64,000 nt of DNA, from positions 13,179 to 77,178 of the forward strand of contig OZ251506.1 in NCBI GenBank assembly GCA_965242835.1, given 5' to 3'. Position numbers and translations under genes: made by a program. Positions 32,555 through 52,499 of this stretch are shown here, piece by piece; position 1 is the stretch's first letter; each line of letters opens with the position of its first letter. The notes beneath the pieces are model-generated. The model made no database searches. It was not told the origin of the DNA and saw nothing but the letters and a program-made list of their open reading frames with translations. The stretch is from Vicinamibacterales bacterium (GTDB lineage Bacteria > Acidobacteriota > Vicinamibacteria > Vicinamibacterales > UBA8438).

Positions 32555-32802
32555 CCGGCGGGCGCCGAACGGAGCGCTTTCCCCGCGCCGAACGCGGCGT
32601 CGAGCCGGTCGAGGATGCACAGCCCGCCGGCGGCCGAGCCGCGGGCGGCCAGCGCGCGAAACCGCGTCTCCGCGTCATGCCGGGTGACGGCGATCGTGGA
32701 CAGCTCCTCCACGAGCCGGTTCACGCTCACGCCGCGATCACGGGCGAGCGCCTTCATGCGCGCATGGGTGTCGTCGGGCAGACGAATGGTCAGCGTCGAC
32801 AA
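32530..32802 (-). CDS. Ribbon-helix-helix (CopG/Arc-type) DNA-binding protein, antitoxin-like, orphan
   Basis: (L)STLTIRLPDDTHARMKALARDRGVSVNRLVEELSTIAVTRHDAETRFRALAARGS... The likely start is TTG at 32802 (alternative ATG at 32847). It is divergent from drmMI, and its 3' end overlaps the drmD 3' end by 25 nt. Confidence 0.6.
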   Translation of the reverse strand: MSTLTIRLPDDTHARMKALARDRGVSVNRLVEELSTIAVTRHDAETRFRALAARGSAAGGLCILDRLDAAFGAGKALRSAPAGQFDSGQR

Positions 32803-32875
32803 GCTCGGCCCTCCGCAAGCGGCACCGTCGAGGGTCAACGGTAACATACGCGCACTCGGCGGGCGACGAGCGACC

Positions 32876-38989: not shown

Positions 38990-38993
38990 TTGA

Positions 38994-41339
38994 ATGGCCG
39001 CCCCCGAGAGCAATCACCCGCACCTGGAACTGCGGAGGGAGGAACCGGTCACCGGACGCCGCCCGCGGTCAGGATTCCCTCGCACCGAGCCGCCGGACGC
39101 CCCTCGAAGGCACGGCGAGATTCTTGGAACTCGCCTGCGAGCGGCGCGGGCGGCCGCCGGAGAAGATCTCGGCGGTACCGACGACCGACGCCTCATCAAG
39201 ATCGAGTTGACGGACAAGGTGTCGCCGGAGGAGGTTGCGAGAGCAGCGAGCGGCATACAGATCGTGAGCCAGGAGGAAGGAATGCTGATACTCGCGTTCG
39301 CTACCGACGAGCAACTCGACGGGTTCGAAGCGAAACTCGCGAGCCTCGCCGCCGGCCGTCACGTCACCTACCGTGATCTGCTTTACGCGCTTCAGGGCTT
39401 CGATCGCTGGACCCCAGAGGACAGAACCGGCTGGGCGCTGAAGCGCGACGGATTCCCCGACGCGGAATCGTTCCTGCTCGACGTGGAGCTGTGGCCGATC
39501 GAGCGCGGCAATGACCTGTCTCGGTCGCGCGCCGCTTTCGAGAGCTGGGTGGCCGGGAATAGTGGACGCGTCGTCGATTCCGTTCAACAACCGTATCTGA
39601 CAATCTACCGGATTCGGTGCGCCCGGACGTTGGCAGACGATCTGCTCCGCTATAGAGACGTCCGCCTTGTCGATCTGCCGCCGCGCATCGGCCTGGAACG
39701 GGCGCTCGTCTCCACTGACGTTCAGGAGTTGGGGGACGTGCCCGCGCCGGCGGCGGATGCTCCGGGGATCGTCGTTCTCGACTCCGGCCTCGTTGCCGGT
39801 CATCCGCTCCTTGCGCCCGCGGTCGGCGATGCGCAGAGTTTTCTCGCCGGTGAATCCGAGACCGACGAGCATGGCCACGGAACGTTCGTGTCGGGAATCG
39901 CCCTCTATGACGACATCGCCGAGTGTATTCGTAACCGGCGTTTCGTGCCGGCGTTGAGGCTGTTCAGCGGCCGAATCCTGAATGACCGGAACGAAGGCGA
40001 TCCCCGCCTTATTGAAAACCAGGTTGACGAAGCCGTCAGGTACTTTGTGGACAATTATGATTGCCGGATATTCAACCTCTCGTACGGCAATACGAACAAG
40101 CCTTATCAGGGCCGGCATGTCGCGGGTCTGGCCGTGACGCTGGACGTTCTGAGTCGGGAGCTCGACGTGCTTTTCGTCGTTCCCACCGGAAACTACAACG
40201 GTGACGACATTGGCCCCCACGACTGGCGTGCCGAATACCCGCGCTATTTGACCGGAGAGACTTCGGTGCTGCTCGATCCGGACCCGGCCTTGAACGCACT
40301 TACGGTCGGCAGCCTCGCCCGCTACGAGCGGGGAGCGCCGAACCAGCGCTGGCCGGATGATCCCGCCTACCGTCCGGTCGCCGGATCGGATCAACCGTCG
40401 CCGTTCACCAGACGCGGACCATCGGTGAACGAGGCCATCAAACCCGATTTGGTGGACTACGGCGGAAATATGCTGGTCGATGTTCGTACCGGCTCGATGG
40501 CCGGACGCCAAGGCGTAGGAGAGTTGTCGGCCTCGCACGAATTTGCCACCGGTGGCTTATTCAGGGAGGACTCCGGCACGAGCTTCGCCGCGCCGCGCAT
40601 CGCGAATGCCGCCGCGCGAATCCTTGGGGAAACGCCTGGAGCAGGCGTGAACCTCTGCCGGGCCCTGCTGGTTTCCCACGCCCGTACGCCGGCGGCTTGC
40701 GCCAATCTGTTCACCACTAACAAGAATGCGCTTCGCAATCTGACCGGCTACGGTTTGGTCGACCGATCTGCGATCTATCGATCGATGGAGAACCATGTTA
40801 CGCTCTGGGCCGAGGAGTCGATAGAGGATCGTCATCATAATTTCTACGAAATACCGGTTCCCGATGAATTCTGGTCGGGGGGCAGGCGGGAACGAGAAGT
40901 GACCATAGCTCTCGCGTTCCGCCCGCCTGTGCGAACCACGAGAATTGACTACCGGGCGGTTGCCATCAGCTTCAAATTCATCCAGGCGGGCTCACTTGAT
41001 GAAGTTGCACGGTCCTTCAACGTCGCTGTTGACCGGGACACTGCCCCGAACATCAAGGAGCGTGATTCCGGGCGACGCATTTCGGAGACGGATCGGTCGC
41101 GCGGCACGGTGCAGGCGTCCACATGGAAGTTCGAGCAGCCCTCCAGGGCGACGCGTGAAAGTTCCTGGTTCGTAGTGGTCACCCGCAACGATCCTGCCTG
41201 GGGCGCGAACCTGTCATCCGAGCGGGAACCGTATGCCCTCACAGTTGTCCTCGCCGACCGCTTCGCCGAACAACCGCGACTGTACACGCGAATCGAAGCG
41301 CGACTCCGCGAACGGATTCGGGTGAGGAGAACGCGATGA
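38994..41339 (+). CDS. ietS: Subtilisin-like S8 serine peptidase, IetS-like
   Basis: Catalytic triad contexts: VVLDSGL (Asp), DEHGHGTFVSG (His), DSGTSFAAPRIA (Ser). 781 aa with no signal peptide. Confidence 0.75.
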   Translation: MAAPESNHPHLELRREEPVTGRRPRSGFPRTEPPDAPRRHGEILGTRLRAARAAAGEDLGGTDDRRLIKIELTDKVSPEEVARAASGIQIVSQEEGMLILAFATDEQLDGFEAKLASLAAGRHVTYRDLLYALQGFDRWTPEDRTGWALKRDGFPDAESFLLDVELWPIERGNDLSRSRAAFESWVAGNSGRVVDSVQQPYLTIYRIRCARTLADDLLRYRDVRLVDLPPRIGLERALVSTDVQELGDVPAPAADAPGIVVLDSGLVAGHPLLAPAVGDAQSFLAGESETDEHGHGTFVSGIALYDDIAECIRNRRFVPALRLFSGRILNDRNEGDPRLIENQVDEAVRYFVDNYDCRIFNLSYGNTNKPYQGRHVAGLAVTLDVLSRELDVLFVVPTGNYNGDDIGPHDWRAEYPRYLTGETSVLLDPDPALNALTVGSLARYERGAPNQRWPDDPAYRPVAGSDQPSPFTRRGPSVNEAIKPDLVDYGGNMLVDVRTGSMAGRQGVGELSASHEFATGGLFREDSGTSFAAPRIANAAARILGETPGAGVNLCRALLVSHARTPAACANLFTTNKNALRNLTGYGLVDRSAIYRSMENHVTLWAEESIEDRHHNFYEIPVPDEFWSGGRREREVTIALAFRPPVRTTRIDYRAVAISFKFIQAGSLDEVARSFNVAVDRDTAPNIKERDSGRRISETDRSRGTVQASTWKFEQPSRATRESSWFVVVTRNDPAWGANLSSEREPYALTVVLADRFAEQPRLYTRIEARLRERIRVRRTR

Positions 41340-41560
41340 CGGATTCCGCCCGCCGCCGTTACTGTCGGTACTGCCGGTTCACCATTGCCGTTCATGGGAA
41401 GTTGGCCGTGGCGTGTGTCCGGGCGGTCGGGGACGACGGCGTCGTCTACGAGGGGCAACTGAGCAACGAGCAGACCGGCGAGTATCACGGCTACCCGATG
41501 AAGAAGGGCGACGGCTTCGCCGGCTTCATCGGCGAGGAGTGGGAAAGGCGCGGAACATGA
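41336..41560 (+). CDS. Hypothetical 74-aa protein
   Basis: The start overlaps the ietS stop (ATGA). Sequence: MTDSARRRYCRYCRFTIAVHGK...GEYHGYPMKKGDGFAGFIGEEWERRGT. I recognise no family. Confidence 0.45.
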   Translation: MTDSARRRYCRYCRFTIAVHGKLAVACVRAVGDDGVVYEGQLSNEQTGEYHGYPMKKGDGFAGFIGEEWERRGT

Positions 41561-42420
41561 CGCTTCATCTATCGACCGCGTGGTGTCGGCAGCCCGGCGA
41601 CGAAGCCGCCGGATCGCCGGAATCGCCGGAAGACGAAGCTACCCTGAGCCGGATCGCCGTGAACGTCGATCGGATCCGGCTGACGCAGACGCTCGACGCC
41701 CGGACGATGCGCGTGCACGACGGCGCGAACCTCTCCGCCTACCGGCTGGCGGAGTGGCTGACCTGGAACTGGTGGCGTCTGCGTTGGGAGCCGCCGCACC
41801 AGAACGTGCAGCGCGATCGCCGGCCGGAGTGGCGGCAGGCGCACGAACTCGCGGGCATCGGCGGCGGCTGGCTCTGGCCGAACGTCACCGTCCGGTCTGA
41901 CGGTCTGCGCATCGGGTTGGACGCGCTGCCGTCGCCGGAGGTTGAGACCGAGCCGATGCGCTACCTGGCGAGTCGGAGCACGGCGGTTTCCGCGGAGTCG
42001 TTCGAGGCGGGGGTCGACGACTTCGTGGAGCGCGTGCTGGCGCGGCTGGACGAGTGCGCGCTCGGCGGCACGGACCTGGCCACCGCCTGGAAAGAACTGG
42101 CGGCCGAGCGCGCCGACCCGGAATCGGCCGCGTACCGGAAGGTCGAGGCGTTCCTCGGCCGCGACGTGGACGAGGCCGATCCGCGGCAGGTGGAACGGAT
42201 CATTCTGGACGGGCGGACGCTCGGCAGCGCGGCCATGTCGGAAGTGGCGGCCGCCGGGTTTCACACCGCCGACGAGCTCCGCGAGGAGGCGCGCAGCGCG
42301 GGCTTCGATACGAGCGCCGACAACCGGGCGCGGGTGCCTGTCCCGAGAAGCGTGATTTCCGGCACTACTCCATCGACAATGTATCCTGCCTTTGGACCTC
42401 GCGTCCCCTCCGCATACTGA
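41557..42420 (+). CDS. Hypothetical 287-aa protein
   Basis: The start overlaps the upstream stop (ATGA). Sequence: ...NLSAYRLAEWLTWNWWRLRWEPPH...GGGWLWPNVTVRSDG... I recognise no family. Confidence 0.5.
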   Translation: MTLHLSTAWCRQPGDEAAGSPESPEDEATLSRIAVNVDRIRLTQTLDARTMRVHDGANLSAYRLAEWLTWNWWRLRWEPPHQNVQRDRRPEWRQAHELAGIGGGWLWPNVTVRSDGLRIGLDALPSPEVETEPMRYLASRSTAVSAESFEAGVDDFVERVLARLDECALGGTDLATAWKELAAERADPESAAYRKVEAFLGRDVDEADPRQVERIILDGRTLGSAAMSEVAAAGFHTADELREEARSAGFDTSADNRARVPVPRSVISGTTPSTMYPAFGPRVPSAY

Positions 42421-42424
42421 CGCC

Positions 42425-43621
42425 ATGAAAAACACTTCCCCCGCCATGCCGTTCATCGCCCCGGCGACTCACGACGACCCGGCTCCGCCTACCGGTATGC
42501 GCCGTTCCGCGGAACCACCGGCCGTGGCGACTCCTCCGCCGTCGTCAGCCGCGTCCTTCGCGAAACGTTCTCTTCCCAGGCCATCCGCCATCTATTCGAT
42601 TCTCTGGCATTTCGCCGACGAGCGCCATCGCGTCTACCTGCAACGGGTCGCCGGACAGCCGCAGCCGTGGACCCGCGATCCCGTGCTGTCGACGTACCGA
42701 TTCACGAACGCCTTCCGCGCCGCCGACCGCGTGAGCCAGTACTTGATCCGCATGGCCTACTCGGACCACGACGCGGACGACGACACGCTGTTCCTCCGGA
42801 CCCTGCTGTTCAAGATCTTCAACCGGATAGACACGTGGGAGAGCATCGTCCGCGCCATCGGGCCGCCCACCGCCGACAGCTTCGACCACCGCGCCTGCGA
42901 AGCGCTCCTCACCGAACGCCGCCGAGCCGGCGGGCGAATCTACTCGGCCGCCTACATCATGCCGACGGGCGGAGACTCCGGATCGCCGAAGCACACGATG
43001 CACCTTCGACTGCTGCGCCGCATGCTCGACGAACGGCTTCCGGCGAAACTCAGACGTTCCCGATCCTTGAAGGACGCCTACGGCCTTCTCCTGGCGTATC
43101 CGACCCTGGGACCGTTTCTCGCGTTCCAGTACGCGATCGACCTCAACTACACGAAGCTGACCTGCCACTCCGAATCGAGCTTCGTCGTGGCCGGCCCCGG
43201 GGCCCTGGACGGGTTGTCGAAGTGCTTCGAATCCCTCGGGGAGTACTCCCCGGACGACGCGATCCTGTGGTTGTCCGACCGCCAGGACGACGAGTTCCGG
43301 CGCGCCGACCGGCCCTTCGACGGGCTGTGGGGACGGTCCCTGCGCCCCATCGACGTCCAGAACCTGTTGTGCGAGGTCTCCAAGTACACCCGCGCGACCC
43401 ACCCCGGGATCAAGGGCCGCGCCGGGCGTGGACGCATCAAGCAGAAGTTCACCGCGGCAGGTCCCTTGCCCCGCCCCTTCTTCCCTCCGAAATGGGAATT
43501 GAACGAGCGCGTCGAAAAGTGGATTGCGGAAAACGGCCACGCTCCGGGCGAACGCCGGCGGCCCCTCCAGACGGATCTGCCGCTCGTCATGACGGCTTCC
43601 GGTAGCCCAGATCCCGGTTGA
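42425..43621 (+). CDS. Putative DNA base hypermodification protein (5-hmdU DNA kinase helical domain / aGPT-pyrophosphorylase-like family)
   Basis: ...IYSILWHFADERHRVYLQRVAGQPQPWTRDPVLSTYRFTNAFRAADRVSQYLIRMAY...LFLRTLLFKIFNRIDTWESI...PFLAFQYAIDLNY... This matches my memory of proteins annotated as 'nucleotide kinase domain-containing / DNA base hypermodification' proteins. It was not searched. Confidence 0.5.
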   Translation: MKNTSPAMPFIAPATHDDPAPPTGMRRSAEPPAVATPPPSSAASFAKRSLPRPSAIYSILWHFADERHRVYLQRVAGQPQPWTRDPVLSTYRFTNAFRAADRVSQYLIRMAYSDHDADDDTLFLRTLLFKIFNRIDTWESIVRAIGPPTADSFDHRACEALLTERRRAGGRIYSAAYIMPTGGDSGSPKHTMHLRLLRRMLDERLPAKLRRSRSLKDAYGLLLAYPTLGPFLAFQYAIDLNYTKLTCHSESSFVVAGPGALDGLSKCFESLGEYSPDDAILWLSDRQDDEFRRADRPFDGLWGRSLRPIDVQNLLCEVSKYTRATHPGIKGRAGRGRIKQKFTAAGPLPRPFFPPKWELNERVEKWIAENGHAPGERRRPLQTDLPLVMTASGSPDPG

Positions 43622-44684
43622 GCAGGTCCAGGGTCACCATGCCGCCTCCATGACGGCCCAGTTCCCGGAACACGCGGAATCCCTCGAGAATGGCCTCTTC
43701 CCACTGCCACAACGGAACCTTGTCGACCTCGAACCCCCTCACGAAACCCTGGATGGTCTTGAGCAGGTCGTAGTCGACACGGTCGATTCCCTCGTAATAG
43801 CCCACTTCCTTCGCTCTGCTGAACACGGTCGCCGACACCGCCTCTTCGATGATGCCGGCCCGCGCGCCGTCCTCGCTTTCGTCCACTTCCGAATTGCTCT
43901 TGCGCTTGCACTTCAACAGACCGCGCAGGATCGGCGACCATCCGAGATATACGGCATATGAGAAATGGAACACGTCGTGGAACCTGTAGCCGTCGGGAGT
44001 GCCGAAATTGTCCGTCAGGCGATCTCCCAGATTGAGACCGTTGCAGCGCAGGATGACGACCGGCCTGTCGCCGCTTCTCGTCTCCCGAAACTCGACCTTC
44101 AGCTTGCGCGGAATCCGCTCCTCCTCCGGGAACTCGCTGTCGAACAGCGGCGCCCCCTTTCGATCCCGCGGCCATCGGCTCCCGGTCTTCTCGACGTTCT
44201 TCCGGGCCGCATCTTCAAGGCAGACGTTCGAACCGGCCGCGACTCGAACAAGAGCCCGCCAGACCGCCGCCAATCCCGGTGACGCATCGGCGTTCGAGTC
44301 CCGTCCCAACGTCTCGATCAGCGCGCCGACAGCGGCGCCGAGCGCAAGCGCATTCTCGACACCTTCTCCATTCGATCGCTCCTGGTCCGCGGCCGCGTCG
44401 TCCAGCTTCGTCACGTCGAACGGCTTCAGAACCGCCGTCAGGCGAGCGAAGTACCACAGAAAATCTCCGAGCTCCTCGCCAAGCCGTTCGGGGGCAATCG
44501 GATAGGCCGCGTCCTCCCGGCTTCTTTTCTTCAGCTCCGCGAGAATGCCGCCGGTTTCACCGAACAGACCCGCGGCCAGAAGCTCGACGTGCTTCGGCTT
44601 CCCGGCCAACCGGTCCGTTCTCTCGGCGCCCTCACGATACCCCACGAACCACGACGCGGCATCCATGCCTTCGTCCTCCTCCAT
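43587..44684 (-). CDS. MazG-like nucleoside triphosphate pyrophosphohydrolase with an extra C-terminal domain
   Basis: ...LLAAGLFGETGGILAELKK...LGEELGDFLWYFARL (MazG EExxE/D-type helix pair). The ATG at 44684 overlaps the vapC stop (TGATG); an alternative ATG lies at 44708. The C-terminal ~200 aa are unassigned. Confidence 0.6.
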   Translation of the reverse strand: MEEDEGMDAASWFVGYREGAERTDRLAGKPKHVELLAAGLFGETGGILAELKKRSREDAAYPIAPERLGEELGDFLWYFARLTAVLKPFDVTKLDDAAADQERSNGEGVENALALGAAVGALIETLGRDSNADASPGLAAVWRALVRVAAGSNVCLEDAARKNVEKTGSRWPRDRKGAPLFDSEFPEEERIPRKLKVEFRETRSGDRPVVILRCNGLNLGDRLTDNFGTPDGYRFHDVFHFSYAVYLGWSPILRGLLKCKRKSNSEVDESEDGARAGIIEEAVSATVFSRAKEVGYYEGIDRVDYDLLKTIQGFVRGFEVDKVPLWQWEEAILEGFRVFRELGRHGGGMVTLDLLNRDLGYRKPS

Positions 44685-45100
44685 CACTCGAGCATCGGCA
44701 TCATGCACCCTTCCGCGCGCGCCGCGGCGCGAAGGGCCCGGTCCAGCGTCGCCAGCGGTAGTCCCCGCCGCATTGCGAGTTCGAGGTACGTCGCATCATA
44801 GGCGGTAAGGTCATGCGCCGCCGCGAGATCGAGGACCGGACCCCAGGCCCGGGTCGTCGAAATCGGATCGACGTCAATCGGCAGCGCATCGAGCTGCATG
44901 CGCAGCCGCGGCCACTCTTCCGTGCCGACCCGGCGGCGGCGCGTCGCGGCGAGAAGGGCGTTGGCCGTCTCCGTCGCCCACAATGCCGGAACCAACGCCC
45001 GGTCGTCGCCCAGCGCGTCCCGCAACCGGCCCGTCGCGCTGGTCGCTTCGTCCCGAAACACCCACGCCATGGTGACCGAGCAATCCAGAACGAACACCAT
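44684..45100 (-). CDS. vapC: PIN-domain toxin (VapC-type)
   Basis: MVFVLDCSVTMAWVFRDE...TETANALL...AHDLTAYDATYLELAMRRGLPLATLDRAL (acidic PIN residues in the expected contexts). Confidence 0.8.
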   Translation of the reverse strand: MVFVLDCSVTMAWVFRDEATSATGRLRDALGDDRALVPALWATETANALLAATRRRRVGTEEWPRLRMQLDALPIDVDPISTTRAWGPVLDLAAAHDLTAYDATYLELAMRRGLPLATLDRALRAAARAEGCMMPMLE

Positions 45101-45864
45101 CAGTAACGCCGCCCTTCGTCGATCATGCGGCGCACCGACATCCCGCCCAGGCTGTGTGACCGTGCGAATTCCTCGAGACCGCGGACCGCTTCCCGAACCG
45201 CGCGCGCGGGGTGTGGTTGAAATGGCGGGATTCTTCGCCGCTTGTCCCACGGCAGGCCCATGAGTTTCCTGTCCCACTCCAGCGGGTCGTTACGACAGCC
45301 AGCTTCATCGAGGCTACGCAGCCACGCCACGCACTCGGCCACCAGATCTTCCGAAAAATTACACTTGTGGCCGGGTCCGCCCTTGCAGACCTCCCTCCTG
45401 AAGGATATCGGAATGTCGGGGCCGTGGCCGCCCCAATAGACGAAATCGTCGCTGACGAGAACACGATCCACCCGGGTATCGTGATCGATGTTTCGACAGT
45501 TCGGTGTTCCGTCCTCGAGACTGTGGTGGGAGTTCGCCTGGATCCACTTGCCGGTGGCGTCGTTCCGGTGATAAATGTTGTCACCGAACGCGTTGCGAAT
45601 ACTGACGTGCAGGTCGGGTCGCTTCTCTCGGAAGCGGAGATCCCGCCAGTACTCGTTGAACGTCATCTTCTCGGTCACGCGCATGGCGAAGACGACGTGC
45701 GCGTCTCGTTTGTGCTTCTTCGACCCGGTTCCCACGATCCAGTCGCCGATCTGGGCCGTTCGCCGTATCTCCGGCTTGCACGTGGCCAGCGTGCAGAATC
45801 CGTGGAACGGATTCGGAGCGAATCCAAAATCTCTCGCCACTACGTACGAATACAGTTTAGGCAC
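45100..45864 (-). CDS. Nmad2-like (nucleotide-modification-associated domain 2) protein fused to an antitoxin-like C-terminal tail
   Basis: N-terminus: (M)PKLYSYVVARDFGFAPNPFHGFCTLATCKPEIRRTAQIGDWIVGTGS... The last ~40 aa (...AVREAVRGLEEFARSHSLGGMSVRRMIDEGRRY) look like the C-terminus of the small antitoxins that precede this kind of PIN toxin. GTG start at 45864; the stop overlaps the vapC ATG. Confidence 0.5.
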   Translation of the reverse strand: MPKLYSYVVARDFGFAPNPFHGFCTLATCKPEIRRTAQIGDWIVGTGSKKHKRDAHVVFAMRVTEKMTFNEYWRDLRFREKRPDLHVSIRNAFGDNIYHRNDATGKWIQANSHHSLEDGTPNCRNIDHDTRVDRVLVSDDFVYWGGHGPDIPISFRREVCKGGPGHKCNFSEDLVAECVAWLRSLDEAGCRNDPLEWDRKLMGLPWDKRRRIPPFQPHPARAVREAVRGLEEFARSHSLGGMSVRRMIDEGRRY

Positions 45865-46351
45865 TCGCCTCTCCTCGTCCGCACGAATAGCGCGGGATCA
45901 TCCGATAGCCGTGCATCGAACCGTCCTGATTGTACCACGCCCCCGATTTGCCGTTGATGGCGTCGATGATGCTCTCACCGTTCCAGCCGACCACGGCGTC
46001 CGCATGGCGATCGAGAGCGGGCGGCAACTCGCAGTCACGCTCGCCCCTCGCCCAGACGCCTACGATCCGCTTGCCCTGCTTCCGGGCGTAGTCGATTTCC
46101 CATTCCACCCATTCGCTGCGCCTGGTTCTTTCCGAGACGTACACCACCAGGCAACCGGCCTGCCGTATGCGCGGAGCGAGTATCTCGGACTTGATGTACT
46201 GCTCGCTGCGCGCGTTGTTCGGGTTGTCCGCGGTTATGGAATAGTCGCGACACGTCATGCCGTGCCGTCCGAGCAGGTCCTTGAGATCCGCCAGGCCGGC
46301 GTCGTCCTCGTGCCGGTGGCTGATGAACACGTTCCTGATCTGTTCCGCCAT
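45857..46351 (-). CDS. TIR-domain protein (DUF1863/ThsB-like)
   Basis: MAEQIRNVFISHRHEDDAGLADLKDLL...CLVVYVSERTRRSEWVEWEIDYARKQGKRIVGV (a conserved Glu in a W..E context). Confidence 0.7.
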   Translation of the reverse strand: MAEQIRNVFISHRHEDDAGLADLKDLLGRHGMTCRDYSITADNPNNARSEQYIKSEILAPRIRQAGCLVVYVSERTRRSEWVEWEIDYARKQGKRIVGVWARGERDCELPPALDRHADAVVGWNGESIIDAINGKSGAWYNQDGSMHGYRMIPRYSCGRGEASA

Positions 46352-46355
46352 CGCC

Positions 46356-46838
46356 TCACTCTCCTTCCTGCCGCTCCAGATTCGTCAGGTCCTCGACGCC
46401 GGCGATCTTCGCCAGCAAGCGGTTGTAGTTACGCAAGTCCGCCTGCAGATGTTCCAGCTGCTCCCGGAATTCCCTTCGCTTCTCCGTGTCCCGGAAAGCG
46501 CCCGACAGAGACTCCCGGTGCCACTTCGCGGTGAACGGGCGCACCACCTGGTTCAGGACGGGTATCGCCACCTTGCTGAATTGCACCGTACCCTTGCCGC
46601 GCCGCCGCAGGATTTCGCGGGTGGTGGGGAACAGCGAGTGGACGCTGTCGAGGGCGGTCTGTTCGTCGCCGACGCTCGCCGGCAGCGGTTGCGTGACGAT
46701 CCGGGTCAGCATCTCGACGTACAGTTCCCACGCGGCGTTTCGGTCTTCGTCGTTGAAGTCGATCTCGACCGTGACCCACTTGGGGCCCAGGCGGACCTTC
46801 GCCAAGCCGAACCGCTCGAAATGATCTCCCAGGTTCAT
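46356..46838 (-). CDS. Hypothetical 160-aa protein, first gene of the TIR sub-block
   Basis: Its stop lies 4 nt from the TIR start. It looks helical, with no TM segment and no family that I recognise. Confidence 0.5.
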   Translation of the reverse strand: MNLGDHFERFGLAKVRLGPKWVTVEIDFNDEDRNAAWELYVEMLTRIVTQPLPASVGDEQTALDSVHSLFPTTREILRRRGKGTVQFSKVAIPVLNQVVRPFTAKWHRESLSGAFRDTEKRREFREQLEHLQADLRNYNRLLAKIAGVEDLTNLERQEGE

Positions 46839-46923
46839 CGCGTCCCTCCAATCTTTCGCGAGGATTCCTGCTCATCCGCCTACTGTGCACCGAGTCCCAA
46901 CAGGCGCTCGAGCGTCGCTGGGT

Positions 46924-47706
46924 TCAGTGAGCCGGGACATTGCGACTTTCCTCGCTTTCCGCGTTCTGGTGGAGATCCATCAGGAGTCTCCGCATGGCGG
47001 CCTTGGATCCGTTCAGATATGCATACGACGAATGAACGGTCAGGCCGCCGATTCTGCTGCCGACCTCGCGCACGACGCAGCACTGGAGTCTGGCGAGACC
47101 CAGCAGGTTGCCCGGAACCTTGTAGCGGTAGTCGTGGCTTCGATACAGCGCGGTCAAGTGCACCGCATCCTGGAACAGCTTGAATGTAAGATGGGAAAGA
47201 CAGGGACCTCCCCTGCGGCGCGTCCCATCCTGCGCGGGGCTGTAGAGAGACATGTCGTATTCGCCTTCAGCAACACCGAGATCATAGCACGATCTCTTTG
47301 GCCCCGGTTTTTTGATTTCGCTCTTCATCTTGTCGATCAACTGTTCCAAGGGGTTGACGTGGCCGCCGCTCGCATCCGACCGTCGGACCAGGCGATGAGC
47401 GTAGGTGCCCCAGTGATTCGACGGATGCTTCTTGATCACGGGATAGACTGTATCGGGATAGTAATCCAGAACCCCAGCAAGACCGCGGTGGCGGTACTCA
47501 TGGCCGGGAAAGATCGTCTCCGCAACCGTGTGCATCGAAAATTGTTTCTCGTCCTTCAGGAACTTGTCGATAATCGAGTGACTTCCGCCAGCCGTCGGCG
47601 ATTCTATCGCCAAGGTCAGATTCAGCATGGGCCCGTGGACCAGCAGATGGTCCGCCGCCTGCATCCAGGCGTCCAGGCGCGTATCGGTTTCGATTAGTTT
47701 CGCCAT
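46924..47706 (-). CDS. Thymidylate synthase / dNMP hydroxymethylase-fold protein
   Basis: ...RRGGPCLSHLTFKLFQDAVHLTALYRSHDYRYKVPGNLLGLARLQCCVVREVGSRIGGLTVHSSYAYL aligns by eye to the ThyA core PCH..FQF.....L.CQLYQRS.D..LG.PFNIASYALL......G......H..GDAHIY, including the catalytic Cys. The ATG at 47706 (or GTG at 47709) overlaps the upstream stop. Confidence 0.6.
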   Translation of the reverse strand: MAKLIETDTRLDAWMQAADHLLVHGPMLNLTLAIESPTAGGSHSIIDKFLKDEKQFSMHTVAETIFPGHEYRHRGLAGVLDYYPDTVYPVIKKHPSNHWGTYAHRLVRRSDASGGHVNPLEQLIDKMKSEIKKPGPKRSCYDLGVAEGEYDMSLYSPAQDGTRRRGGPCLSHLTFKLFQDAVHLTALYRSHDYRYKVPGNLLGLARLQCCVVREVGSRIGGLTVHSSYAYLNGSKAAMRRLLMDLHQNAESEESRNVPAH

Positions 47707-48338
47707 CACGCCGCATCCTCCGTCAGCACCAGCACGTCCCGCAGGTGCTGGATCATGAAGGCGTCATCGAGCCAGGCATGGCCGGCGTCGGCCCACGCCG
47801 CGCCCCAACTGTTCCGGATGAGGAAGCGGCGCGCCGTGTGCGTCGTACCGATTCCCACGGCCGCGACCGCGTGGAGTCCTCTGACCGGGCCGGCCGAGGA
47901 GATGACCCACGGCGCAGTCGGAGCATAGAAGGCGTCCGTCGTCGAAATGCCCAGAACGGGGACGTGGCCGGCGTCGAGAAGCGCTTCGACGTCATCCGGA
48001 CTCTGCTGCGCCGACGCGCTCCGTCGCCGATACAGGGTCAGATTCGCGGGCGGCGTCCACGCGGGCGGCGGTTCGCTCTCCTGATACGGGCAATCCGATT
48101 CGACAGGTTGTCCGGGGTCGAGAAGGGCGCGGGAGACGTTCGGGAAGTCGACGCCCGTGGGGGAGTCGGTGCTTCCCGAAGCGAAGTGGTGCAGGTACTC
48201 GGGCGACAGCGCCACCGTCGATCCGCGTGCATGTTCGTGCACCGTCGTGGACGCGTGCGCGAGGCAGGTCGGACGCGCTCCCTGATCGCGAACCGGACCG
48301 AGCAGCGGGCGGTAGTCGTGGCGGATGGTGACGTTCAT
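47706..48338 (-). CDS. Papain-like (C1 family) cysteine peptidase, cytoplasmic
   Basis: LGPVRDQGARPTCLAHAST (Cys), GLHAVAAVGIG (His), FLIRNSWGAAWADAGHAWL (Asn / NSWG). No signal peptide. The ATG at 48338 overlaps the upstream stop (ATGA). Confidence 0.7.
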   Translation of the reverse strand: MNVTIRHDYRPLLGPVRDQGARPTCLAHASTTVHEHARGSTVALSPEYLHHFASGSTDSPTGVDFPNVSRALLDPGQPVESDCPYQESEPPPAWTPPANLTLYRRRSASAQQSPDDVEALLDAGHVPVLGISTTDAFYAPTAPWVISSAGPVRGLHAVAAVGIGTTHTARRFLIRNSWGAAWADAGHAWLDDAFMIQHLRDVLVLTEDAA

Positions 48339-49318
48339 GCAACCCGTTCCAGGGCGCCGCGTCTGGTGCGCCGCGCCCAACCTTCACGTTCTTTTCCGTG
48401 CCCGTCGACGTCGATCCGGATGCGGGCCAGGGTGGCGCGGCTCCACGGCCGGACGTGTTCGAAGACGAGTTCATGCACGCCGGGCGCCTTGAACCTCACG
48501 TACGACACCCGTGACGATCGCGCGCCATACGCGTGATCGAGATCCGGCGTCCGCTCGCCGACGACGTCGACCTCGGCGTCCGCGTCGACGAGACGCCAGA
48601 CGTAACCGGCGGAGGCGTGGTCCTGGACGTGGACGGCGAACAGGTCGTCGGGGCCTGCTTCAATGAACGTCTCGCTGTCGGCCGCCGTCAGCGCCCACAC
48701 GTCAGCCCACGAGTTCGTGATCGATCCCGCGGGCGCCAACTCGTGCTTCAGCGTCTTCACCGACGTTTTCTGGAGTTGGCGGACTTCGGGGCGCGTGAGA
48801 ACCCCGGACGTGACCAAGGCCCAGCACGCGGCTTGGTAGCTGATGCCCAACCGCAGGGACAGTTGATAGATGTTGGAGGGCAGGCGGAGCTTGTCCCTGG
48901 TCCACTCATGACGCTGCGCGGACGCGAGAAGGAGGCGCTTCGGAGCCAGAAGCTCGGCGGCGAACGCATCCGCCGCCGCCTCGTGCGTCGGTCTCGACGC
49001 CGGTGCGTTCCGTCCCGCGAACCCGACCGCCTCGTCGAGGCTCGTTCGGTGTCCGAGCCACAGATGGCCGAGTTCGTGGGCGACCGTGAACCGTTGCACC
49101 GGCAACCCGAGTTTCGAGGTCACGATGATTCCGCGCGCCTGGTCGTTGACGGTGATGAACGCGCCCCACAGCTTGTCCAGCGGCCGGAACAGCAGCGGGA
49201 TGCCGCGGTCGGCGACGGCCCCGATGACGTCGAAGCTGGTCCGGGCGCCGATCGGCGACTCGTCGAACACGGCCGCGGCCCCGCTGACGGCGCGCAGTAT
49301 CTCCGTGCGCCTGGTCAT
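48335..49318 (-). CDS. ImmA/IrrE-type zinc metallopeptidase fused to a chagasin-like (I42) cysteine-peptidase-inhibitor domain
   Basis: The N-terminal half has FTVAHELGHLWLGH (HExxH) plus ...EAAADAFAAELLAP. The C-terminal ~110 aa (48338-48676) read ...LFAVHVQDHASAGYVWRL...YGARSSRVSYVRFKAPGVHELVFEHVRPWS... Compare the chagasin motifs NPTTG(F/Y)xW, G.GG and RPW. Confidence 0.6.
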   Translation of the reverse strand: MTRRTEILRAVSGAAAVFDESPIGARTSFDVIGAVADRGIPLLFRPLDKLWGAFITVNDQARGIIVTSKLGLPVQRFTVAHELGHLWLGHRTSLDEAVGFAGRNAPASRPTHEAAADAFAAELLAPKRLLLASAQRHEWTRDKLRLPSNIYQLSLRLGISYQAACWALVTSGVLTRPEVRQLQKTSVKTLKHELAPAGSITNSWADVWALTAADSETFIEAGPDDLFAVHVQDHASAGYVWRLVDADAEVDVVGERTPDLDHAYGARSSRVSYVRFKAPGVHELVFEHVRPWSRATLARIRIDVDGHGKEREGWARRTRRGALERVA

Positions 49319-49656
49319 TTCGTCTTCCTCGATCTCAGGAATTGCGCGAATCGCAGCACCTCGCCCCGATCCGTGTCCGACAGATCGGTGGCGGCGCGCG
49401 CCAGCAGGCGGACCGACTCCGGCTGAGAGGCTTCCTGGCCATGACCCGCGAGGCTCTCCATCGTGGTCTGGTACAGCTTGGCCAGTCGGCCGAGTTCTTC
49501 GACGCTGACACGCCGGGCGCCGCTCTCGATCAGCGAGATCGCCGACCGCGGCACACCGAGATGGCCGGCGACCTCCTCCTGGGAGAATCCGCGGTACTCG
49601 CGCTCCTCTCTGAGCCGTTTTCCGAGGACGTTCCGAGTCGTTCCCCGGTCGTTCAT
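49315..49656 (-). CDS. XRE-family helix-turn-helix transcriptional regulator
   Basis: ...LGKRLREEREYRGFSQEEVAGHLGVPRSAISLIESGARRVSVEELGRLAKLY... It overlaps both neighbours by ATGA. Confidence 0.85.
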   Translation of the reverse strand: MNDRGTTRNVLGKRLREEREYRGFSQEEVAGHLGVPRSAISLIESGARRVSVEELGRLAKLYQTTMESLAGHGQEASQPESVRLLARAATDLSDTDRGEVLRFAQFLRSRKTK

Positions 49657-50015
49657 GAATCGACCTCCTGAGAAATGCGCTCCGCCGGGTCGGAACCTCC
49701 CTTGCCGAAGACGAGATGCCGGATCGTGTCTTCGATGCCGGCGTATCCGCCGACGCGAATGCGCTTGATGTCGAAAGGGCAGCCGTGCTTCTCGAAGATC
49801 GGCGCCATCCGGGCGACCGTCTTGGAGTCGACGACAGGCATGGTCCCCCATGGATCCGCTCCAGCCGCGCCGTTGCCGAGAACCTGGACGTCCCAGCCCG
49901 CCTGTTCTTTGGCCCACCACTCGCGGAGCTCCGCCGCCAACCGCATGCGGGGGGCGGCCACGTCGCTCTGCGCGGGTTCGGGCGGGGGGCCGAACACGAT
50001 CTTGGGCTGCAACAT
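49653..50015 (-). CDS. Hypothetical 120-aa protein with a carrier-protein-like (ACP/PCP) helix-II motif
   Basis: ...GTMPVVDSKTVARMAPIFEKHGCPFDIKRI...YAGIEDTIRHLV compares with E. coli ACP ...[28 protein letters not shown]...TTVQAAIDYI. It lies 98 bp downstream of a PPTase gene. The resemblance is weak and is an inference. Confidence 0.35.
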   Translation of the reverse strand: MLQPKIVFGPPPEPAQSDVAAPRMRLAAELREWWAKEQAGWDVQVLGNGAAGADPWGTMPVVDSKTVARMAPIFEKHGCPFDIKRIRVGGYAGIEDTIRHLVFGKGGSDPAERISQEVDS

Positions 50016-50113
50016 CCGGCATCCGTTCGATAATCAGACACTCTACAGAAAAAACGTCCGATGGTCAAACCATCGCGATCTGCACCCAAGTTCGCTCACG
50101 GAGAAGAACGAGT

Positions 50114-50761
50114 TCACACGCCGGCCGGCCACAGGGCGGCCGAGGCGATCCATGACGGAACGGCCCTGGAACAGCGCATGTCGAGCGCGACGCCGCATGC
50201 CCGGGCGACGCCGCGACAGCGAACGGGGCTGATCGAGGTCCACGACACGGCGACTTCCTCAAGACCGAGCGGACGGCCGAGAATCGGGTGCAGGGCCTTG
50301 AAGGCGGCTTCCTTGACGGAGAAGAGAACGACCCGTCCACCGGCCTCCGGCATCGACGCCCACGGTTGTTCGCCGACGCCCAGTCCGCGGAGGTTCGGGA
50401 CGGGCTTCGCGTCCAGGCGTTCCACGTCGATGCCGATCGACCTCGCTCGATCGGCGCCGGCGACAGCGGCGGCCACGGTCGTGCCCTTGTGACTCACGCT
50501 GCCGGTGCAGCCTTGCGGCCACTCGCGAGCTCCGGAGGCCAACCGCGCCGGCTCGACGGCAGGAAGACCCATGCTCGCGAGGAGATCCGCCAAGCACTTC
50601 CCGGTTGCGTCCCGCTGGGCCTCCATCAGGACCCGCTCGCGGGCGGTCGGCGGAACGTCGCGAGGACGTTGGAGCCAATGGGCGAACGACCCGCCTGAAA
50701 TCACGAGCTCCGGCGCCAAACGCCGGAGCTCGTCGATCAGCCGGTCCGATTGGAGATGCAT
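50114..50761 (-). CDS. 4'-phosphopantetheinyl transferase (EntD/Sfp-type)
   Basis: ...GSVSHKGTTVAAAVA...SIGIDVERL...VLFSVKEAAFKALHP (the GxDxE and FSxKEAxxK motifs). Confidence 0.75.
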   Translation of the reverse strand: MHLQSDRLIDELRRLAPELVISGGSFAHWLQRPRDVPPTARERVLMEAQRDATGKCLADLLASMGLPAVEPARLASGAREWPQGCTGSVSHKGTTVAAAVAGADRARSIGIDVERLDAKPVPNLRGLGVGEQPWASMPEAGGRVVLFSVKEAAFKALHPILGRPLGLEEVAVSWTSISPVRCRGVARACGVALDMRCSRAVPSWIASAALWPAGV

Positions 50762-50824
50762 GCTCGAATCACCGGGGATCGCCGCGCGGTTTTCCCGACT
50801 GGCGCAGCAACACGCCCGCCGGAA

Positions 50825-51050
50825 TCCCGGGCGTCAGGGCTGTCGGGGTCGGCGTCCATGAGCTCGTCGATCCGCGCGAGGGCGGCTTCGTAGTCGGCTT
50901 CGGTCCGCACCGGGCGGGTGTCGGCCATCTTTCACACCTCCTCGACGTCCCGGCGTCGTACTCCGTGTGCGTGCCCACGAACCGCGCCGAAGCGACAGTC
51001 CGGCCGCGGGCCCGCGCCACCTTCAGGCGTCGGCCGATCATGAGACGGCC
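50825..51050 (-). pseudogene. HigB/HigA toxin-antitoxin remnant
   Basis: HigB-like C-terminus ...RLMIGRRLKVARARGRTVASARFVGTHTEYD (frame of ORF 50769..51122), followed by a HigA-like N-terminus MADTRPVRTEADYEAALARIDELMDADPDSP that degenerates before any HTH. Confidence 0.5.
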
Positions 51051-51127
51051 CCTTGGCGTTCGGCGCGGGAAGCGTTGCGGACGTTCGCTCGGTGTAGACT
51101 CGTCATCAGGTGTCGACGCCATATGCC

Positions 51128-51346
51128 ATGCGAACCATCATAAACCTCGCGGACGATCAGGTGCGGCGGCTCGCCGAGGTGTGTCGGCGGGAAGGCGTCT
51201 CCCGCGCCGAGGCGGTCCGCCGCGCGGTCGCCGACTACCTCGACGCGCGGTGCCTGCGCGAACGGGAAGACGCGTTCGGCCTCTGGCGGGGCCGCCGAAT
51301 CGACGGCCTCGAGTACGAGCGGCGGCGGCGGCGGGAGTGGCCCTGA
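51128..51346 (+). CDS. vapB: Ribbon-helix-helix antitoxin (VapB/CopG-type)
   Basis: MRTIINLADDQVRRLAEVCRREGVSRAEAVRRAVADYL... Its stop abuts the GTG start of the PIN gene. Confidence 0.75.
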   Translation: MRTIINLADDQVRRLAEVCRREGVSRAEAVRRAVADYLDARCLREREDAFGLWRGRRIDGLEYERRRRREWP

Positions 51347-51712
51347 GTGCGCGCCCTGCTCGACACCAACGTTCTGATCGACTACCTCGGCGGCATCGAG
51401 GCCGCCCGCGACGAGATCGCCCGCCACGCCGATGCGTCGATCAGCCTGATTACGTGGATGGAGGTGCTGGCCGGCGCTTCCGACGACCGGGAAACGGCCC
51501 GGCTCGAGTCGTTCCTGTCCAGCTTCGAGCTGGTCGCCATCGACGCCGAGGTGAGCGAGCTGGCCGTCGCCATCCGGCGCCGGCATCGCATCCGCCTGCC
51601 CGATGCGATCATCCGGGCGAGCGCCCGCACCGTCGGCGCCGTACTCGTCACACGGAACACGAAGGACTTTCCCGCCGACGATCCGGGGGTTCGGGTGCCG
51701 TATTCGCTGTGA
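51347..51712 (+). CDS. vapC: PIN-domain toxin (VapC-type)
   Basis: (M)RALLDTNVLIDYL...LITWMEVL...RLPDAIIRASA...LVTRNTKDF. Confidence 0.85.
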   Translation: MRALLDTNVLIDYLGGIEAARDEIARHADASISLITWMEVLAGASDDRETARLESFLSSFELVAIDAEVSELAVAIRRRHRIRLPDAIIRASARTVGAVLVTRNTKDFPADDPGVRVPYSL

Positions 51713-51801
51713 TCAGGAACGGAACGCGGCGCTCGCCCGCCTCTCGGCGAGCTCGTCAACTACGATTCCATGCTACGATTGTTTCCGAAGAGGACATCTG
51801 C

Positions 51802-52104
51802 ATGGCCATCAACATCGCGCATCGGCGGGATCTCGACGACCGCGTCGAGCGGCTGGCCGGCCGTCTCTCTCTCCGCGGGCGGGGGAGGAAGGTCGCCGTC
51901 ATCGAGCGGGCGCTGGAGGCGCTGGAAACACAGGTGGCGCGCAGCCGTCCGGACCGCGCGGCCATCCTGGCCTCTCTGGAGCGGTACGCGGAAGCGGGGA
52001 CGCGCCTGCGCGAGAGGCCGATCGACGCGGAAGCCGCGGATCGCCGTCCGGCGTCGCTGCGCCTCCAGGACGCCCTGTACGACGAGCGCGGGCTGCCGCG
52101 GTGA
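51802..52104 (+). CDS. vapB: VapB-type antitoxin (Rv0623/PSK-like fold)
   Basis: MAINIAHRRDLDDRVERLAGRLSLRGRGRKVAVIERALEALE... It overlaps the downstream PIN gene by 4 nt. Confidence 0.65.
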   Translation: MAINIAHRRDLDDRVERLAGRLSLRGRGRKVAVIERALEALETQVARSRPDRAAILASLERYAEAGTRLRERPIDAEAADRRPASLRLQDALYDERGLPR

Positions 52105-52499
52105 TCGTCGTCGACACCTCGGCGATCCTCGCCATCCTGCTGCCGGAGGACGACGCGGCGGCGTACCGGGCGCGGATCGCGGACGCCGGGCATGCGCTGG
52201 TGTCCGCGGTGTCGGCGGTGGAGCTGGCCGCGGTCGCGAGCCGGGACGATGCGCTGTCCGATGCGGTTCGCGCCTTCCTGGAGGAACCGTTCGTGGCCGT
52301 CGAAACCGTCGACGCGGCGCAGGCATCGGCCGCCGCCGCCGCCTACCGCCGCTTCGGCCGGGGCCGCCATCCCGCCGGTCTCGACCTCGGCGACGTCTTC
52401 CCCTACGCGCTGGCCCGCACGCGGGGACTGCCGCTGCTGTTCAAGGGACGCGATTTCTCGCGGACCGACGTCGAGTGCGCGATCCCGTCGGAAACGTGA
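52101..52499 (+). CDS. vapC: PIN-domain toxin (VapC-type)
   Basis: (V)IVVDTSAILAILLPEDD...VSAVSAVEL...LDLGDVFPYALARTRGLPLLFKGRDF. Its stop overlaps the drmA ATG (GTGATG). Confidence 0.85.
   Translation: MIVVDTSAILAILLPEDDAAAYRARIADAGHALVSAVSAVELAAVASRDDALSDAVRAFLEEPFVAVETVDAAQASAAAAAYRRFGRGRHPAGLDLGDVFPYALARTRGLPLLFKGRDFSRTDVECAIPSET

Follow-up and report, generated by a model that had tools for sequence, protein, structure and literature searches.

Inside a split DISARM locus of a Vicinamibacterales bacterium (contig OZ251506.1), eleven minus-strand genes form a tightly packed, operon-like array at positions 43587 to 50761 of the 64,000-nucleotide stretch analysed here, hereafter the window, whose numbering is used throughout. 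We propose that this array is probably (about 0.6) one composite, horizontally mobile and probably anti-phage operon, built from modules of a single widespread system family. Its modular composition is hardly in doubt, and a role in defence is likely. The likely function is an inducible defence acting on pyrimidine nucleotides and on 5-substituted uracil in DNA, by a mechanism that we infer; the effector logic attached to it, in which work on the pyrimidine pool is combined with base excision, is put forward tentatively. The locus is a rare hybrid member of a very large family that has been predicted computationally and is experimentally untouched.

Three neighbourhood scans of one-genome-per-species contigs were centred on Nmad2 (80 loci), on the ImmA::I42 fusion protein (39 loci) and, by means of a profile, on MazG_C (80 loci); these loci are the best matches to the window's proteins, and the fractions obtained from them are not unbiased frequencies. 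Around MazG_C, either a gene resembling uracil-DNA glycosylase (UDG; 56 loci) or an HMUDK_hel gene (21 loci) is present in 77 of the 80 loci. The scans thus show a recurrent and invariant core, consisting of the MazG::MazG_C fusion protein and a predicted DNA-glycosylase-like enzyme, which is HMUDK_hel/aGPT-Pplase1-like in the window and belongs to the UDG superfamily elsewhere. They also show that, as a rule, the core is accompanied by one of two front ends, which appear interchangeable. Front end A, as delimited by gene neighbourhood, comprises an acyl carrier protein (ACP)-like protein (g2), an XRE regulator, ImmA::I42, a papain-like C1 peptidase and a thymidylate synthase (TS)-like enzyme, to which a 4'-phosphopantetheinyl transferase (PPTase) appears to be added in this lineage only. 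Front end B, delimited in the same way, comprises a protein of the g7 family, a ThsB-like TIR protein and Nmad2, often with extra pairs of TIR and SLOG proteins. In the MazG_C-centred loci, the XRE-ImmA-C1-TS block occurs in 53 of 80, with the TS-like gene as the last gene of front end A; the g2 family is found in 48 (that is, 48 of the 53 front-end-A loci), Nmad2 in 26, the TIR-Nmad2 pair in 22, and both front ends together in two.

The two other scans lead to the same units. Immediately upstream of Nmad2, a ThsB-like TIR gene lies in about 60 of 80 loci; MazG::MazG_C is found in 38 to 40 of them, an HMUDK_hel protein in 33 or 34, a UDG-superfamily protein in 15, and g7, upstream of TIR-Nmad2, in 21 to 23. 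Rarer partners are pairs of TIR with SLOG cluster 2 or 3 proteins, a second ThsB-like TIR, a more canonical TS and a dCTP-deaminase-like membrane protein. The order PPTase-g2-XRE-ImmA::I42-C1 is seen in about 20 of the 39 ImmA::I42-centred loci (Vicinamibacterales, Binatia, Gammaproteobacteria and Longimicrobiales), and in at least nine the TS-like gene runs straight into MazG::MazG_C and a convergent HMUDK_hel gene, g7, TIR, Nmad2 and PIN, and hence front end B, being absent from these loci. The modules and their link to MazG_C and the glycosylase-like gene recur in the same order in distant phyla, with 30% to 50% protein identity, and the families are large, counting more than 3200 homologues for MazG_C, more than 6500 for Nmad2 and about 3800 for g7. 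An earlier reading of the window from its letters (the sequence-only reading) had divided the array into two five-gene blocks behind a PPTase gene and regarded neither combination as previously seen. The scans give other divisions, namely front end A with or without PPTase, g7-TIR-Nmad2 with or without the Nmad2 tail and PIN, and MazG::MazG_C with the convergent HMUDK_hel gene, and each of these units recurs in many genomes of many phyla, so that the check for co-occurrence proposed with the sequence-only reading does not point to chance juxtaposition.

In the window, front end A comes first, followed by front end B, placed between the TS-like and MazG genes, and then by the core; this copy of front end B carries an Nmad2 tail and a PIN gene. 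The same hybrid order was found in L082/L120 and in L201. In L201, whose surroundings are unrelated and not of the DISARM type, the full eleven-gene order is kept at 77% identity. L082/L120 has a truncated TS gene and L201 a split one, and L081, L083 and L084 derive by deletion; hybrid loci appear liable to rearrange or decay, above all where TS meets g7. In L082, the truncated TS gene is followed by about 1.5 kb of extra DNA (9628-11480), and the split TS gene of L201 lies at 7123-7904. In the three deletion derivatives (around 9000-10500), internal deletions fuse gene fragments, for example TS residues 1-31 to g7 residues 92-158, or C1 residues 1-42 to g7.

Other variants were observed among the relatives of front end B. 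The closest (L001, 3601-8331, a Binatia metagenome-assembled genome whose Nmad2 is 74% identical) adjoins a DrmA homologue, with a 407-aa ATPase-like open reading frame (ORF) in between. Its XRE protein, 69% identical to that of the window, directly precedes g7, an order which suggests either descent from a hybrid by loss of ImmA, C1 and TS, or recombination at the XRE gene. In seven Dehalococcoidia loci of about 11.7 kb (L002, L004, L006, L008 and L010-L012), a 310-aa dCTP-deaminase-like protein with C-terminal transmembrane helices is encoded between MazG_C and HMUDK_hel, and a second ThsB-like TIR between g7 and TIR. Some 20 other loci, mostly from Dehalococcoidia, contain Nmad2 without any of its usual partners.

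The eleven ORFs, their overlaps and the 85-bp gap described by the sequence-only reading are all present in the ORF list and the window sequence. ATGA overlaps join g2 to XRE, XRE to ImmA and ImmA to C1, and TGATG overlaps join C1 to TS, Nmad2 to PIN and PIN to MazG; TIR and Nmad2 overlap by 8 nt, and gaps of 4, 85 and 98 nt separate g7 from TIR, TS from g7 and PPTase from g2, respectively. An inverted repeat or a promoter was sought in the TS/g7 gap, and none was found. Start/stop overlaps are ordinary in bacterial operons; as judged from the sequence comparisons, the feature that stands above chance is the gene set and the gene order kept in other phyla, not the overlaps. The lower G+C content noticed earlier was also found, with 0.61-0.68 across 43-51 kb versus 0.72-0.80 in most of the window. 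Independent gene calls, made by others on a near-identical 5.27-Mb metagenomic ENA contig (ERZ26050812, L200), agree with the ORF boundaries of ten of the eleven genes at both ends, and give a MazG protein of 303 aa versus 365 aa for the coupled form. The coupled start is preferred because alignments with homologues from other phyla begin at residues 7-16 of the 365-aa form, a region that holds the MazG helices in the AlphaFold2 (AF2) model. The C1 gene (47706-48338) differs between the two contigs by an in-frame indel, L200 (6492-7133) having nine extra nt, that is three codons, with the rest matching.

The core enzyme MazG::MazG_C (43587-44684) is predicted to be an all-alpha NTP pyrophosphatase fused to MazG_C (PF18722, E = 4.8e-77), the MazG domain itself being weakly recognised (PF03819, 0.006). 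In the AF2 model (pLDDT 80.6), the N-terminal MazG domain resembles dimeric dUTPases and phage MazG by Foldseek, as well as the dUTPase of the hypermodified phage PhiW-14, and the MazG_C part (residues ~190-362) is rich in invariant Asp, His and Arg. Its convergent partner, which lies outside the reported interval (42392-43621, plus strand) and overlaps the 3' end of MazG by 35 nt, is the HMUDK_hel/aGPT-Pplase-clade-1-like gene (PF18723, 5.8e-94). HMUDK_hel has 489 phage homologues, some of those listed being annotated as aGPT-Pplase clade 1, and is 29-38% identical to phage aGPT-Pplase1; in phage Montesquieu, the homologue lies between a DNA polymerase gene and a TS/pyrimidine hydroxymethylase gene. 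5-substituted dU in DNA is the substrate of phage aGPT-Pplase enzymes, and a protein of this type has been predicted to be helix-hairpin-helix (HhH) glycosylase-like (PMC8989533). In 50,697 phage records, neither MazG_C nor Nmad2 was found. Sequence searches with MazG::MazG_C, HMUDK_hel and Nmad2 against PDB chains yielded nothing usable. Pfam revealed no P-loop kinase domain in any of the 12 proteins, and no Walker A motif was seen in MazG_C or HMUDK_hel by inspection.

Upstream of the regulated operon, the PPTase gene (50114-50761), an accessory gene specific to the lineage, encodes an Sfp-type enzyme (4PPT_N, 2.2e-7; ACPS, 1.7e-6) with intact GID (110) and FSxKE (147) motifs. It adjoins the g2 family in 19 of the 39 ImmA-centred loci and in only 9 of the 80 MazG_C-centred loci, most g2 homologues having no dedicated PPTase alongside. 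The operon opens with g2 (49653-50015, 120 aa), which has no match in a Pfam search. Across 49 sequences, it displays an invariant Asp-Ser (D63-S64) followed by an amphipathic helix, and an invariant GGY motif. The profile built from these sequences aligned with five ACPs at 86% probability in hhalign, Ser64 falling on the phosphopantetheine serine of the ACP DSL motif, whereas a shallower alignment of 22 close sequences gave 1.9%. Since only the deeper alignment gave 86%, the ACP-like assignment is moderate and not firm; it agrees with the 'carrier-like' label of the sequence-only reading, nearly all of whose domain assignments proved right.

The next three genes encode a putative regulatory and proteolytic unit. 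XRE (49315-49656) is an XRE/CapH-like helix-turn-helix repressor (HTH_31, 5.2e-15; PADLOC capH, 3e-14 over the full length). ImmA::I42 (48335-49318) fuses an ImmA/IrrE/CapP-type Zn-metallopeptidase (Peptidase_M78, 2.6e-14) to a chagasin-type cysteine-peptidase inhibitor domain (Inhibitor_I42, 3.7e-8); PADLOC capP matches the peptidase part only (1.4e-15, profile positions 11-143 of 242). The motifs HELGH (81), GYxW (238) and RPW (290) are at least 90% conserved in 54 sequences. In the ImmA- and MazG_C-centred scans, the C1 gene (Peptidase_C1, 6.5e-8) always follows immediately, and the fusion and its C1 partner are also found in Sphingopyxis and Pseudomonas loci at about 35% identity. The papain-like protease, with Q19, C25, H156 and N176 at least 90% conserved in 54 sequences, is the presumed target of the I42 domain; the I42 loops and the catalytic Gln, Cys, His and Asn of C1 are both kept across 54 pairs, as would be expected of the predicted inhibitor-enzyme pair. 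The last gene of front end A, TS-like (46924-47709, with the ATG at 47706 as possible start), encodes a divergent thymidylate-synthase-fold enzyme, poorly recognised by the Pfam TS model (0.054) and matched by TIGR03283 (6.8e-10) and phrog_5131 (4.4e-5). Its nucleophile C170, together with R190 and N201, is at least 90% conserved in 55 sequences.

The intergenic region between PPTase and g2 (50022-50075, minus strand) contains a promoter-like sequence, TTGACC-17-TAGAGT, flanked or overlapped by two related boxes, GTTTGACnnTCGGAC and GTyyGaTTATCGAACa, as well as a 7-bp palindrome over the -35 hexamer. Both boxes lie where an XRE operator would be expected and may constitute it; they are kept in the alignments of 17 related loci, the proteins of which share 43-90% identity. 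In 34 UDG-type loci, whose ORF starts are uncurated, no 9-mers were shared between the regions upstream of the ACP-like gene and of MazG. The XRE-ImmA organisation recalls the CapH/CapP pair, and also ImmR/ImmA and DdrO/IrrE, where immune operons start with an XRE repressor gene and then one for an HExxH M78 metallopeptidase, with boxes over the promoter (10.1101/2022.04.27.489752; PMC13228613). In CapP, a GAF domain forms half of an ssDNA-binding groove and a cysteine-switch loop is present (PMC13228613). In contrast, the window protein has I42 as its C-terminus in place of GAF, and no Cys was seen by sequence inspection in the loop following HExxH; moreover, the repressor is preceded by an ACP-like gene, and the metallopeptidase gene is always followed by one for a papain-like peptidase. 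The activating signal therefore probably differs from that of CapP.

In front end B, g7 (46356-46838, 160 aa) has no match in Pfam, PADLOC, NCBIfam or PHROGs, and belongs to a family of 3810 homologues, all of about 160 aa and stand-alone, linked to TIR-Nmad2. The TIR protein (45857-46351) matches ThsB_TIR (PF08937, 1.3e-23) and, over its full length, PADLOC ThsB (PDLC00418, 2.5e-61), and its E85, the Glu of the WVxxEI motif, is at least 90% conserved in 72 sequences. It thus has the ThsB feature of Thoeris, including the catalytic Glu, and the TIR and SLOG pairs of sister loci recall SLOG-based signal sensing in ThsA. However, its constant partner is Nmad2 and not ThsA, and MazG_C and the glycosylase-like enzyme are its downstream partners. 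No ThsA, SIR2 or SLOG was matched by Pfam or PADLOC in the eleven proteins or the flanks, and the SLOG partners, restricted to sister loci, are not PADLOC ThsA. Membership in Thoeris was ruled out, as the window has no ThsA (SIR2, Macro or transmembrane effector with SLOG).

Nmad2 (45100-45864) consists of an Nmad2 domain (PF18753, 1.8e-74, residues 1-199), predicted to adopt a PUA-like fold, and a 55-aa C-terminal tail modelled at low confidence (AF2, pLDDT 74.5 for the protein). Foldseek retrieved ASCH, EVE, THYN1 bound to 5mC DNA, YTH, the McrB N-domain and the 5hmC-specific PD-T4-3, the best match having E = 3.9e-3 and a probability of 0.97. Of the 120 best homologues, 15 have the tail; among the variants examined, it was found in all those in which PIN comes next and in no others, and PIN follows in every tail-bearing locus examined (the window, L001, L082, L201, L202 and L203). 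The PIN protein (44684-45100; Pfam, 6.4e-9) is a predicted VapC-like nuclease with acidic residues D6, E44, D102 and D120, and it is rare in the family, occurring in 1 of 80 loci in each of the Nmad2- and MazG_C-centred surveys. As in VapBC systems, PIN has its four acidic residues and is coupled, by TGATG, to an upstream gene. Here, however, the candidate 'antitoxin' is the tail of a 200-aa Nmad2 domain, and Pfam revealed no recognised antitoxin or DNA-binding domain in it.

From these components, the following mechanism may be envisaged. XRE would repress the operon by acting at the conserved boxes that precede the ACP-like gene, and the chagasin domain would keep the papain-like protease latent in the resting state. 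Upon a trigger involving this caged protease, the CapP/ImmA-type metallopeptidase would cleave XRE; since a chagasin domain replaces the GAF domain, the trigger would not be the ssDNA/GAF signal of CapP. After induction, the TS-fold enzyme, whose nucleophilic Cys is kept, and MazG/MazG_C would rework the deoxypyrimidine pool, for instance from dUTP/dTTP to dNMP and then to 5-substituted dUMP, or by removing the non-canonical dNTP of a phage. The glycosylase-like enzyme would then act on uracil or 5-substituted uracil in replicating DNA, blocking or breaking it. Nmad2, with the PUA-like fold of modified-base readers, would sense the unusual base or nucleotide and control TIR, either an NADase or a signal producer; in the variant of the window, its C-terminal tail would also control the PIN toxin as an abortive-infection back-up.

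The pyrimidine and modified-base theme is suggested by two facts, namely that UDG-like and aGPT-like enzymes swap in the same position, and that characterised relatives of every enzyme family handle dUMP, dUTP or 5-substituted uracil. Catalytic or binding residues are at least 90% conserved in TS, C1, ImmA, I42 and TIR, the MazG invariants coming from a separate alignment. The unusual base might be made by the host, in a suicidal or poisoning pathway, or supplied by the phage, in a restriction of modified phages. The host-made version appears to fit better, given the tight repression, the kept TS nucleophile and the pairing of MazG with MazG_C.

Several points weigh against this proposal. The substrate roles attributed to MazG, to the TS-like protein and to the glycosylase-like enzyme are predictions drawn from sequence likeness. 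MazG_C has no PDB analogue, Foldseek having matched the MazG::MazG_C model only through its N-terminal domain, and its 'kinase' label is consequently a database prediction only. The Nmad2 matches are weak (E 4e-3 to 1, TM about 0.45), yet form a coherent PUA-like series. The folate-contacting Asp of classical TS, mapped by eye to its probable position, is not conserved in 55 TS-like sequences, so that the enzyme may not transfer one-carbon units, and front-end-B loci often have no TS gene, in which case a host-made base would need another source. The requirement for TS, MazG and ACP is unexplained since a glycosylase alone is enough in Brig1-type defences, and the mechanism assigns no role to the ACP-like protein. 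Because TS is truncated or split in the two other hybrids (L082 and L201), the hybrid may be partly decaying. To these may be added the choice of scan loci among best matches and, as far as the available DefensePredictor text goes (PMC13092281), the unvalidated status of the predicted defence domains MazG, MazG-C ('predicted nucleotide kinase'), NMAD, UDG, aGPT-Pplase and dUTPase.

A bolder extension, which we regard as unlikely, would make the cassette a host-domesticated phage thymidine-hypermodification toolkit, turned into an inducible weapon and representing a new class of immunity through programmed DNA-base chemistry. Following repressor cleavage, 5-substituted deoxyuridine would be fed into the dNTP pool by the TS-fold enzyme and MazG/MazG_C, and might be phosphorylated by MazG_C in the role of a non-P-loop kinase. 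Processing of the base in replicating DNA would fall to the aGPT-Pplase-like or UDG-like enzyme, by excision or by nucleophile transfer; in the boldest form, the nucleophile would be the phosphopantetheine thiol of the ACP-like protein, yielding a DNA-protein adduct. Licensing would depend on the chagasin-caged protease as the switch, and sensing of the modified base on the PUA-like Nmad2/TIR pair.

Among the rival explanations, the best surviving one, improbable as it is, sees the array as a pure restriction of phages with non-canonical pyrimidines. In this view, the phage's unusual dNTP would be degraded by MazG, the modified base would be cut out of phage DNA by the UDG- or aGPT-like enzyme, and Nmad2 would serve as the reader of the modification; no base would be made by the host, and the TS-like protein would only bind or sense modified dNMP. 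Precedents are provided by the UDG-family proteins Brig1 and Brig2 and by the HhH 'Dag' glycosylases, which defend against phages with modified DNA (PMC11078745; 10.1101/2025.10.29.685425), and with which the locus shares a glycosylase-like protein in a defence context, its likely target being a modified pyrimidine in DNA. These are single-gene systems, whereas the predicted glycosylase is here obligately paired with MazG::MazG_C and multi-gene front ends. The PUA-like fold that Nmad2 has in common with EVE, McrB-N and PD-T4-3, the resemblance of MazG-type enzymes to dUTPases and the front-end-B loci devoid of any TS gene would also fit. However, the conservation of Cys, Arg and Asn in the TS-like family suggests catalysis, the tight XRE/ImmA repression and the latent protease are unexpected for a harmless, self-sparing glycosylase, and the ACP-like protein again has no role.

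Self-marking of host DNA by thymidine hypermodification is still more doubtful. The TS-like protein would be a hydroxymethylase acting with MazG, a MazG_C 'kinase' and an aGPT-Pplase1-like transferase, possibly with ACP as a group donor, and the whole would supply the 'M' arm of an immunity that depends on modification, as in Dpd or Dnd. The phage pathways, with dUMP hydroxymethylase, 5-HMUDK and aGPT-Pplase/AADT (PMC5889632, PMC8989533), appear to share with the window a TS-fold enzyme, a MazG/dUTPase-like enzyme and an aGPT-Pplase clade 1 homologue. The many phage homologues of HMUDK_hel, the Montesquieu gene neighbourhood and the likeness of the MazG N-domain to the PhiW-14 dUTPase all point the same way. 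In contrast to those pathways, the cassette is cellular, repressor-controlled and located in a defence island, and it has no P-loop 5-HMUDK, PLP or radical-SAM enzymes; MazG_C and Nmad2 are not found in the phage records, and no cognate restriction component is conserved. Furthermore, UDG, which removes bases, replaces the aGPT-like enzyme in most MazG_C-centred loci, and the repressor/anti-repressor control together with the TIR, SLOG and PIN partners suggests an inducible harmful pathway rather than constitutive marking.

Chance juxtaposition of unrelated units, that is an ImmR/ImmA mobile-element remnant, an orphan ThsB, a VapBC-like pair and housekeeping nucleotide enzymes, is very improbable and largely refuted by synteny. 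The island is indeed a mosaic of DISARM, Iet and two VapBC pairs, deletion variants exist, the TS/g7 joint is the one long gap, and the two-front-end hybrid is rare. Nevertheless, the modules and their link to the MazG_C/glycosylase-like pair are kept in order across distant phyla, the complete order returns in L201 in an unrelated context, and neither integrase nor phage structural genes were found in the window region by ORF inspection or independent gene calls. A prophage or integrative and conjugative element immunity region was ruled out on this last ground, the cassette being also conserved in non-phage contexts. Least probable of all is a small carrier-protein-dependent biosynthetic cluster making a nucleotide-derived metabolite or antibiotic: an intact PPTase does adjoin an ACP-like protein with an invariant Ser, with nucleotide-acting enzymes downstream, but most ACP-like loci have no PPTase (9 versus 48 of 80), the context is a defence island with TIR and PIN partners, and adenylation, ketosynthase, condensation and thioesterase genes are all absent, which rules out a secondary-metabolite cluster.

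With regard to described systems, the view that the array matches no named one was borne out, since PADLOC v2 recognises only ThsB (TIR) and capH/capP (XRE/ImmA); it has no models for MazG_C, Nmad2, HMUDK_hel, UDG-like, SLOG and TS-like proteins. Nevertheless, the array is uncharacterised rather than unknown, since its domains carry Pfam names tied to nucleotide modification and are listed in the available text of DefensePredictor (PMC13092281), which credits Burroughs et al. (2015, NAR) with the MazG, MazG-C, NMAD, UDG and aGPT-Pplase predictions. The same families are found here (MazG_C, Nmad2, and HMUDK_hel, related to aGPT-Pplase1, with UDG in sister loci), and so are the fusion of MazG to MazG_C and the adjacent UDG/aGPT-Pplase-like protein. 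The window differs by joining both front ends and by adding PPTase and the Nmad2-tail/PIN pair. The ACP-like gene, the conserved ImmA::chagasin and papain-like pair, the alternation of UDG with HMUDK_hel and that of the front ends were not found in that available text. As far as it shows, the core/front-end architecture, the ACP-like component, the anti-repressor::chagasin and papain pair, the PUA-like fold of Nmad2 and the Nmad2-tail/PIN variant are apparently new. Literature searches with the exact names Nmad2, MazG_C and HMUDK_hel and with the PF numbers returned no relevant paper.

The position of the array inside a split DISARM locus, as stated by the sequence-only reading, was confirmed by PADLOC. 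DrmD (27620-32554, E = 0) and DrmMI (32615-37195, E = 0) lie on the upstream flank, and DrmA (from about 52500, 1e-261) and DrmB (3e-80) on the downstream flank, the array itself having no Drm homology. The gap also holds other defence genes. Between DrmMI and the array stands a complete Gao 'Iet' pair (37982-41339, plus strand; IetA AAA ATPase, 6.6e-92; IetS subtilase, 4.8e-259), and two consecutive antitoxin and PIN (VapBC-like) pairs (51110-51712 and 51803-52500, plus strand) directly precede drmA, orientated in the same way. Since DrmA begins at about 52500, at the end of the second PIN, and the independent call is 1196 aa, the 1440-aa ORF at 51770-56092 overstates DrmA. The array is embedded in or adjoins DISARM in the window, L001 and L202, block B with the core again lying next to DISARM or Iet genes in the latter two, and Iet pairs are also found near TIR-Nmad2 or MazG_C modules in L017, L048, L082, L084, L135 and L202. 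Immediate neighbours of the 80 MazG_C loci include AbiE, Septu PtuB, SoFic, MADS, ThsB, bSEFIR, restriction-modification genes and many PDC candidates, and one copy is carried by a Sulfitobacter plasmid.

Some smaller ORFs border the array. That at 41413-42420 (plus strand; 253 aa from an alternative start), which has no Pfam or PADLOC match, shares 29 nt with the beginning of the HMUDK_hel gene, and both therefore probably form one two-gene convergent operon. Its homologues adjoin HMUDK_hel or Iet in a few relatives only (L082, L084, L085 and L098/L123), and it is preceded by a 74-aa ORF at 41336-41560. On the other side, a 63-aa ORF (50737-50928, minus strand) overlaps the PPTase start and opens like a HigA-type antitoxin (MADTRPVRTEADYEAALARIDELMDA...); it looks truncated compared with the 131-aa version that lies upstream of the PPTase gene in L085.

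The MazG_C, Nmad2 and g7 families sit in the defence islands of many phyla, including those of the culturable Sphingopyxis, Rhizobium, Pseudomonas, Delftia, Brucella and Salipiger. The parts list now available, with a two-gene core, two alternative front ends, catalytic residues and a conserved putative operator, makes a long-standing computational prediction directly testable. If the proposed effector logic is true, programmed manipulation of pyrimidine nucleotides combined with base excision would be an added mode of bacterial immunity, together with a protease caged by an inhibitor fused to an anti-repressor, and host defence would be linked to the thymidine-hypermodification chemistry of phages.

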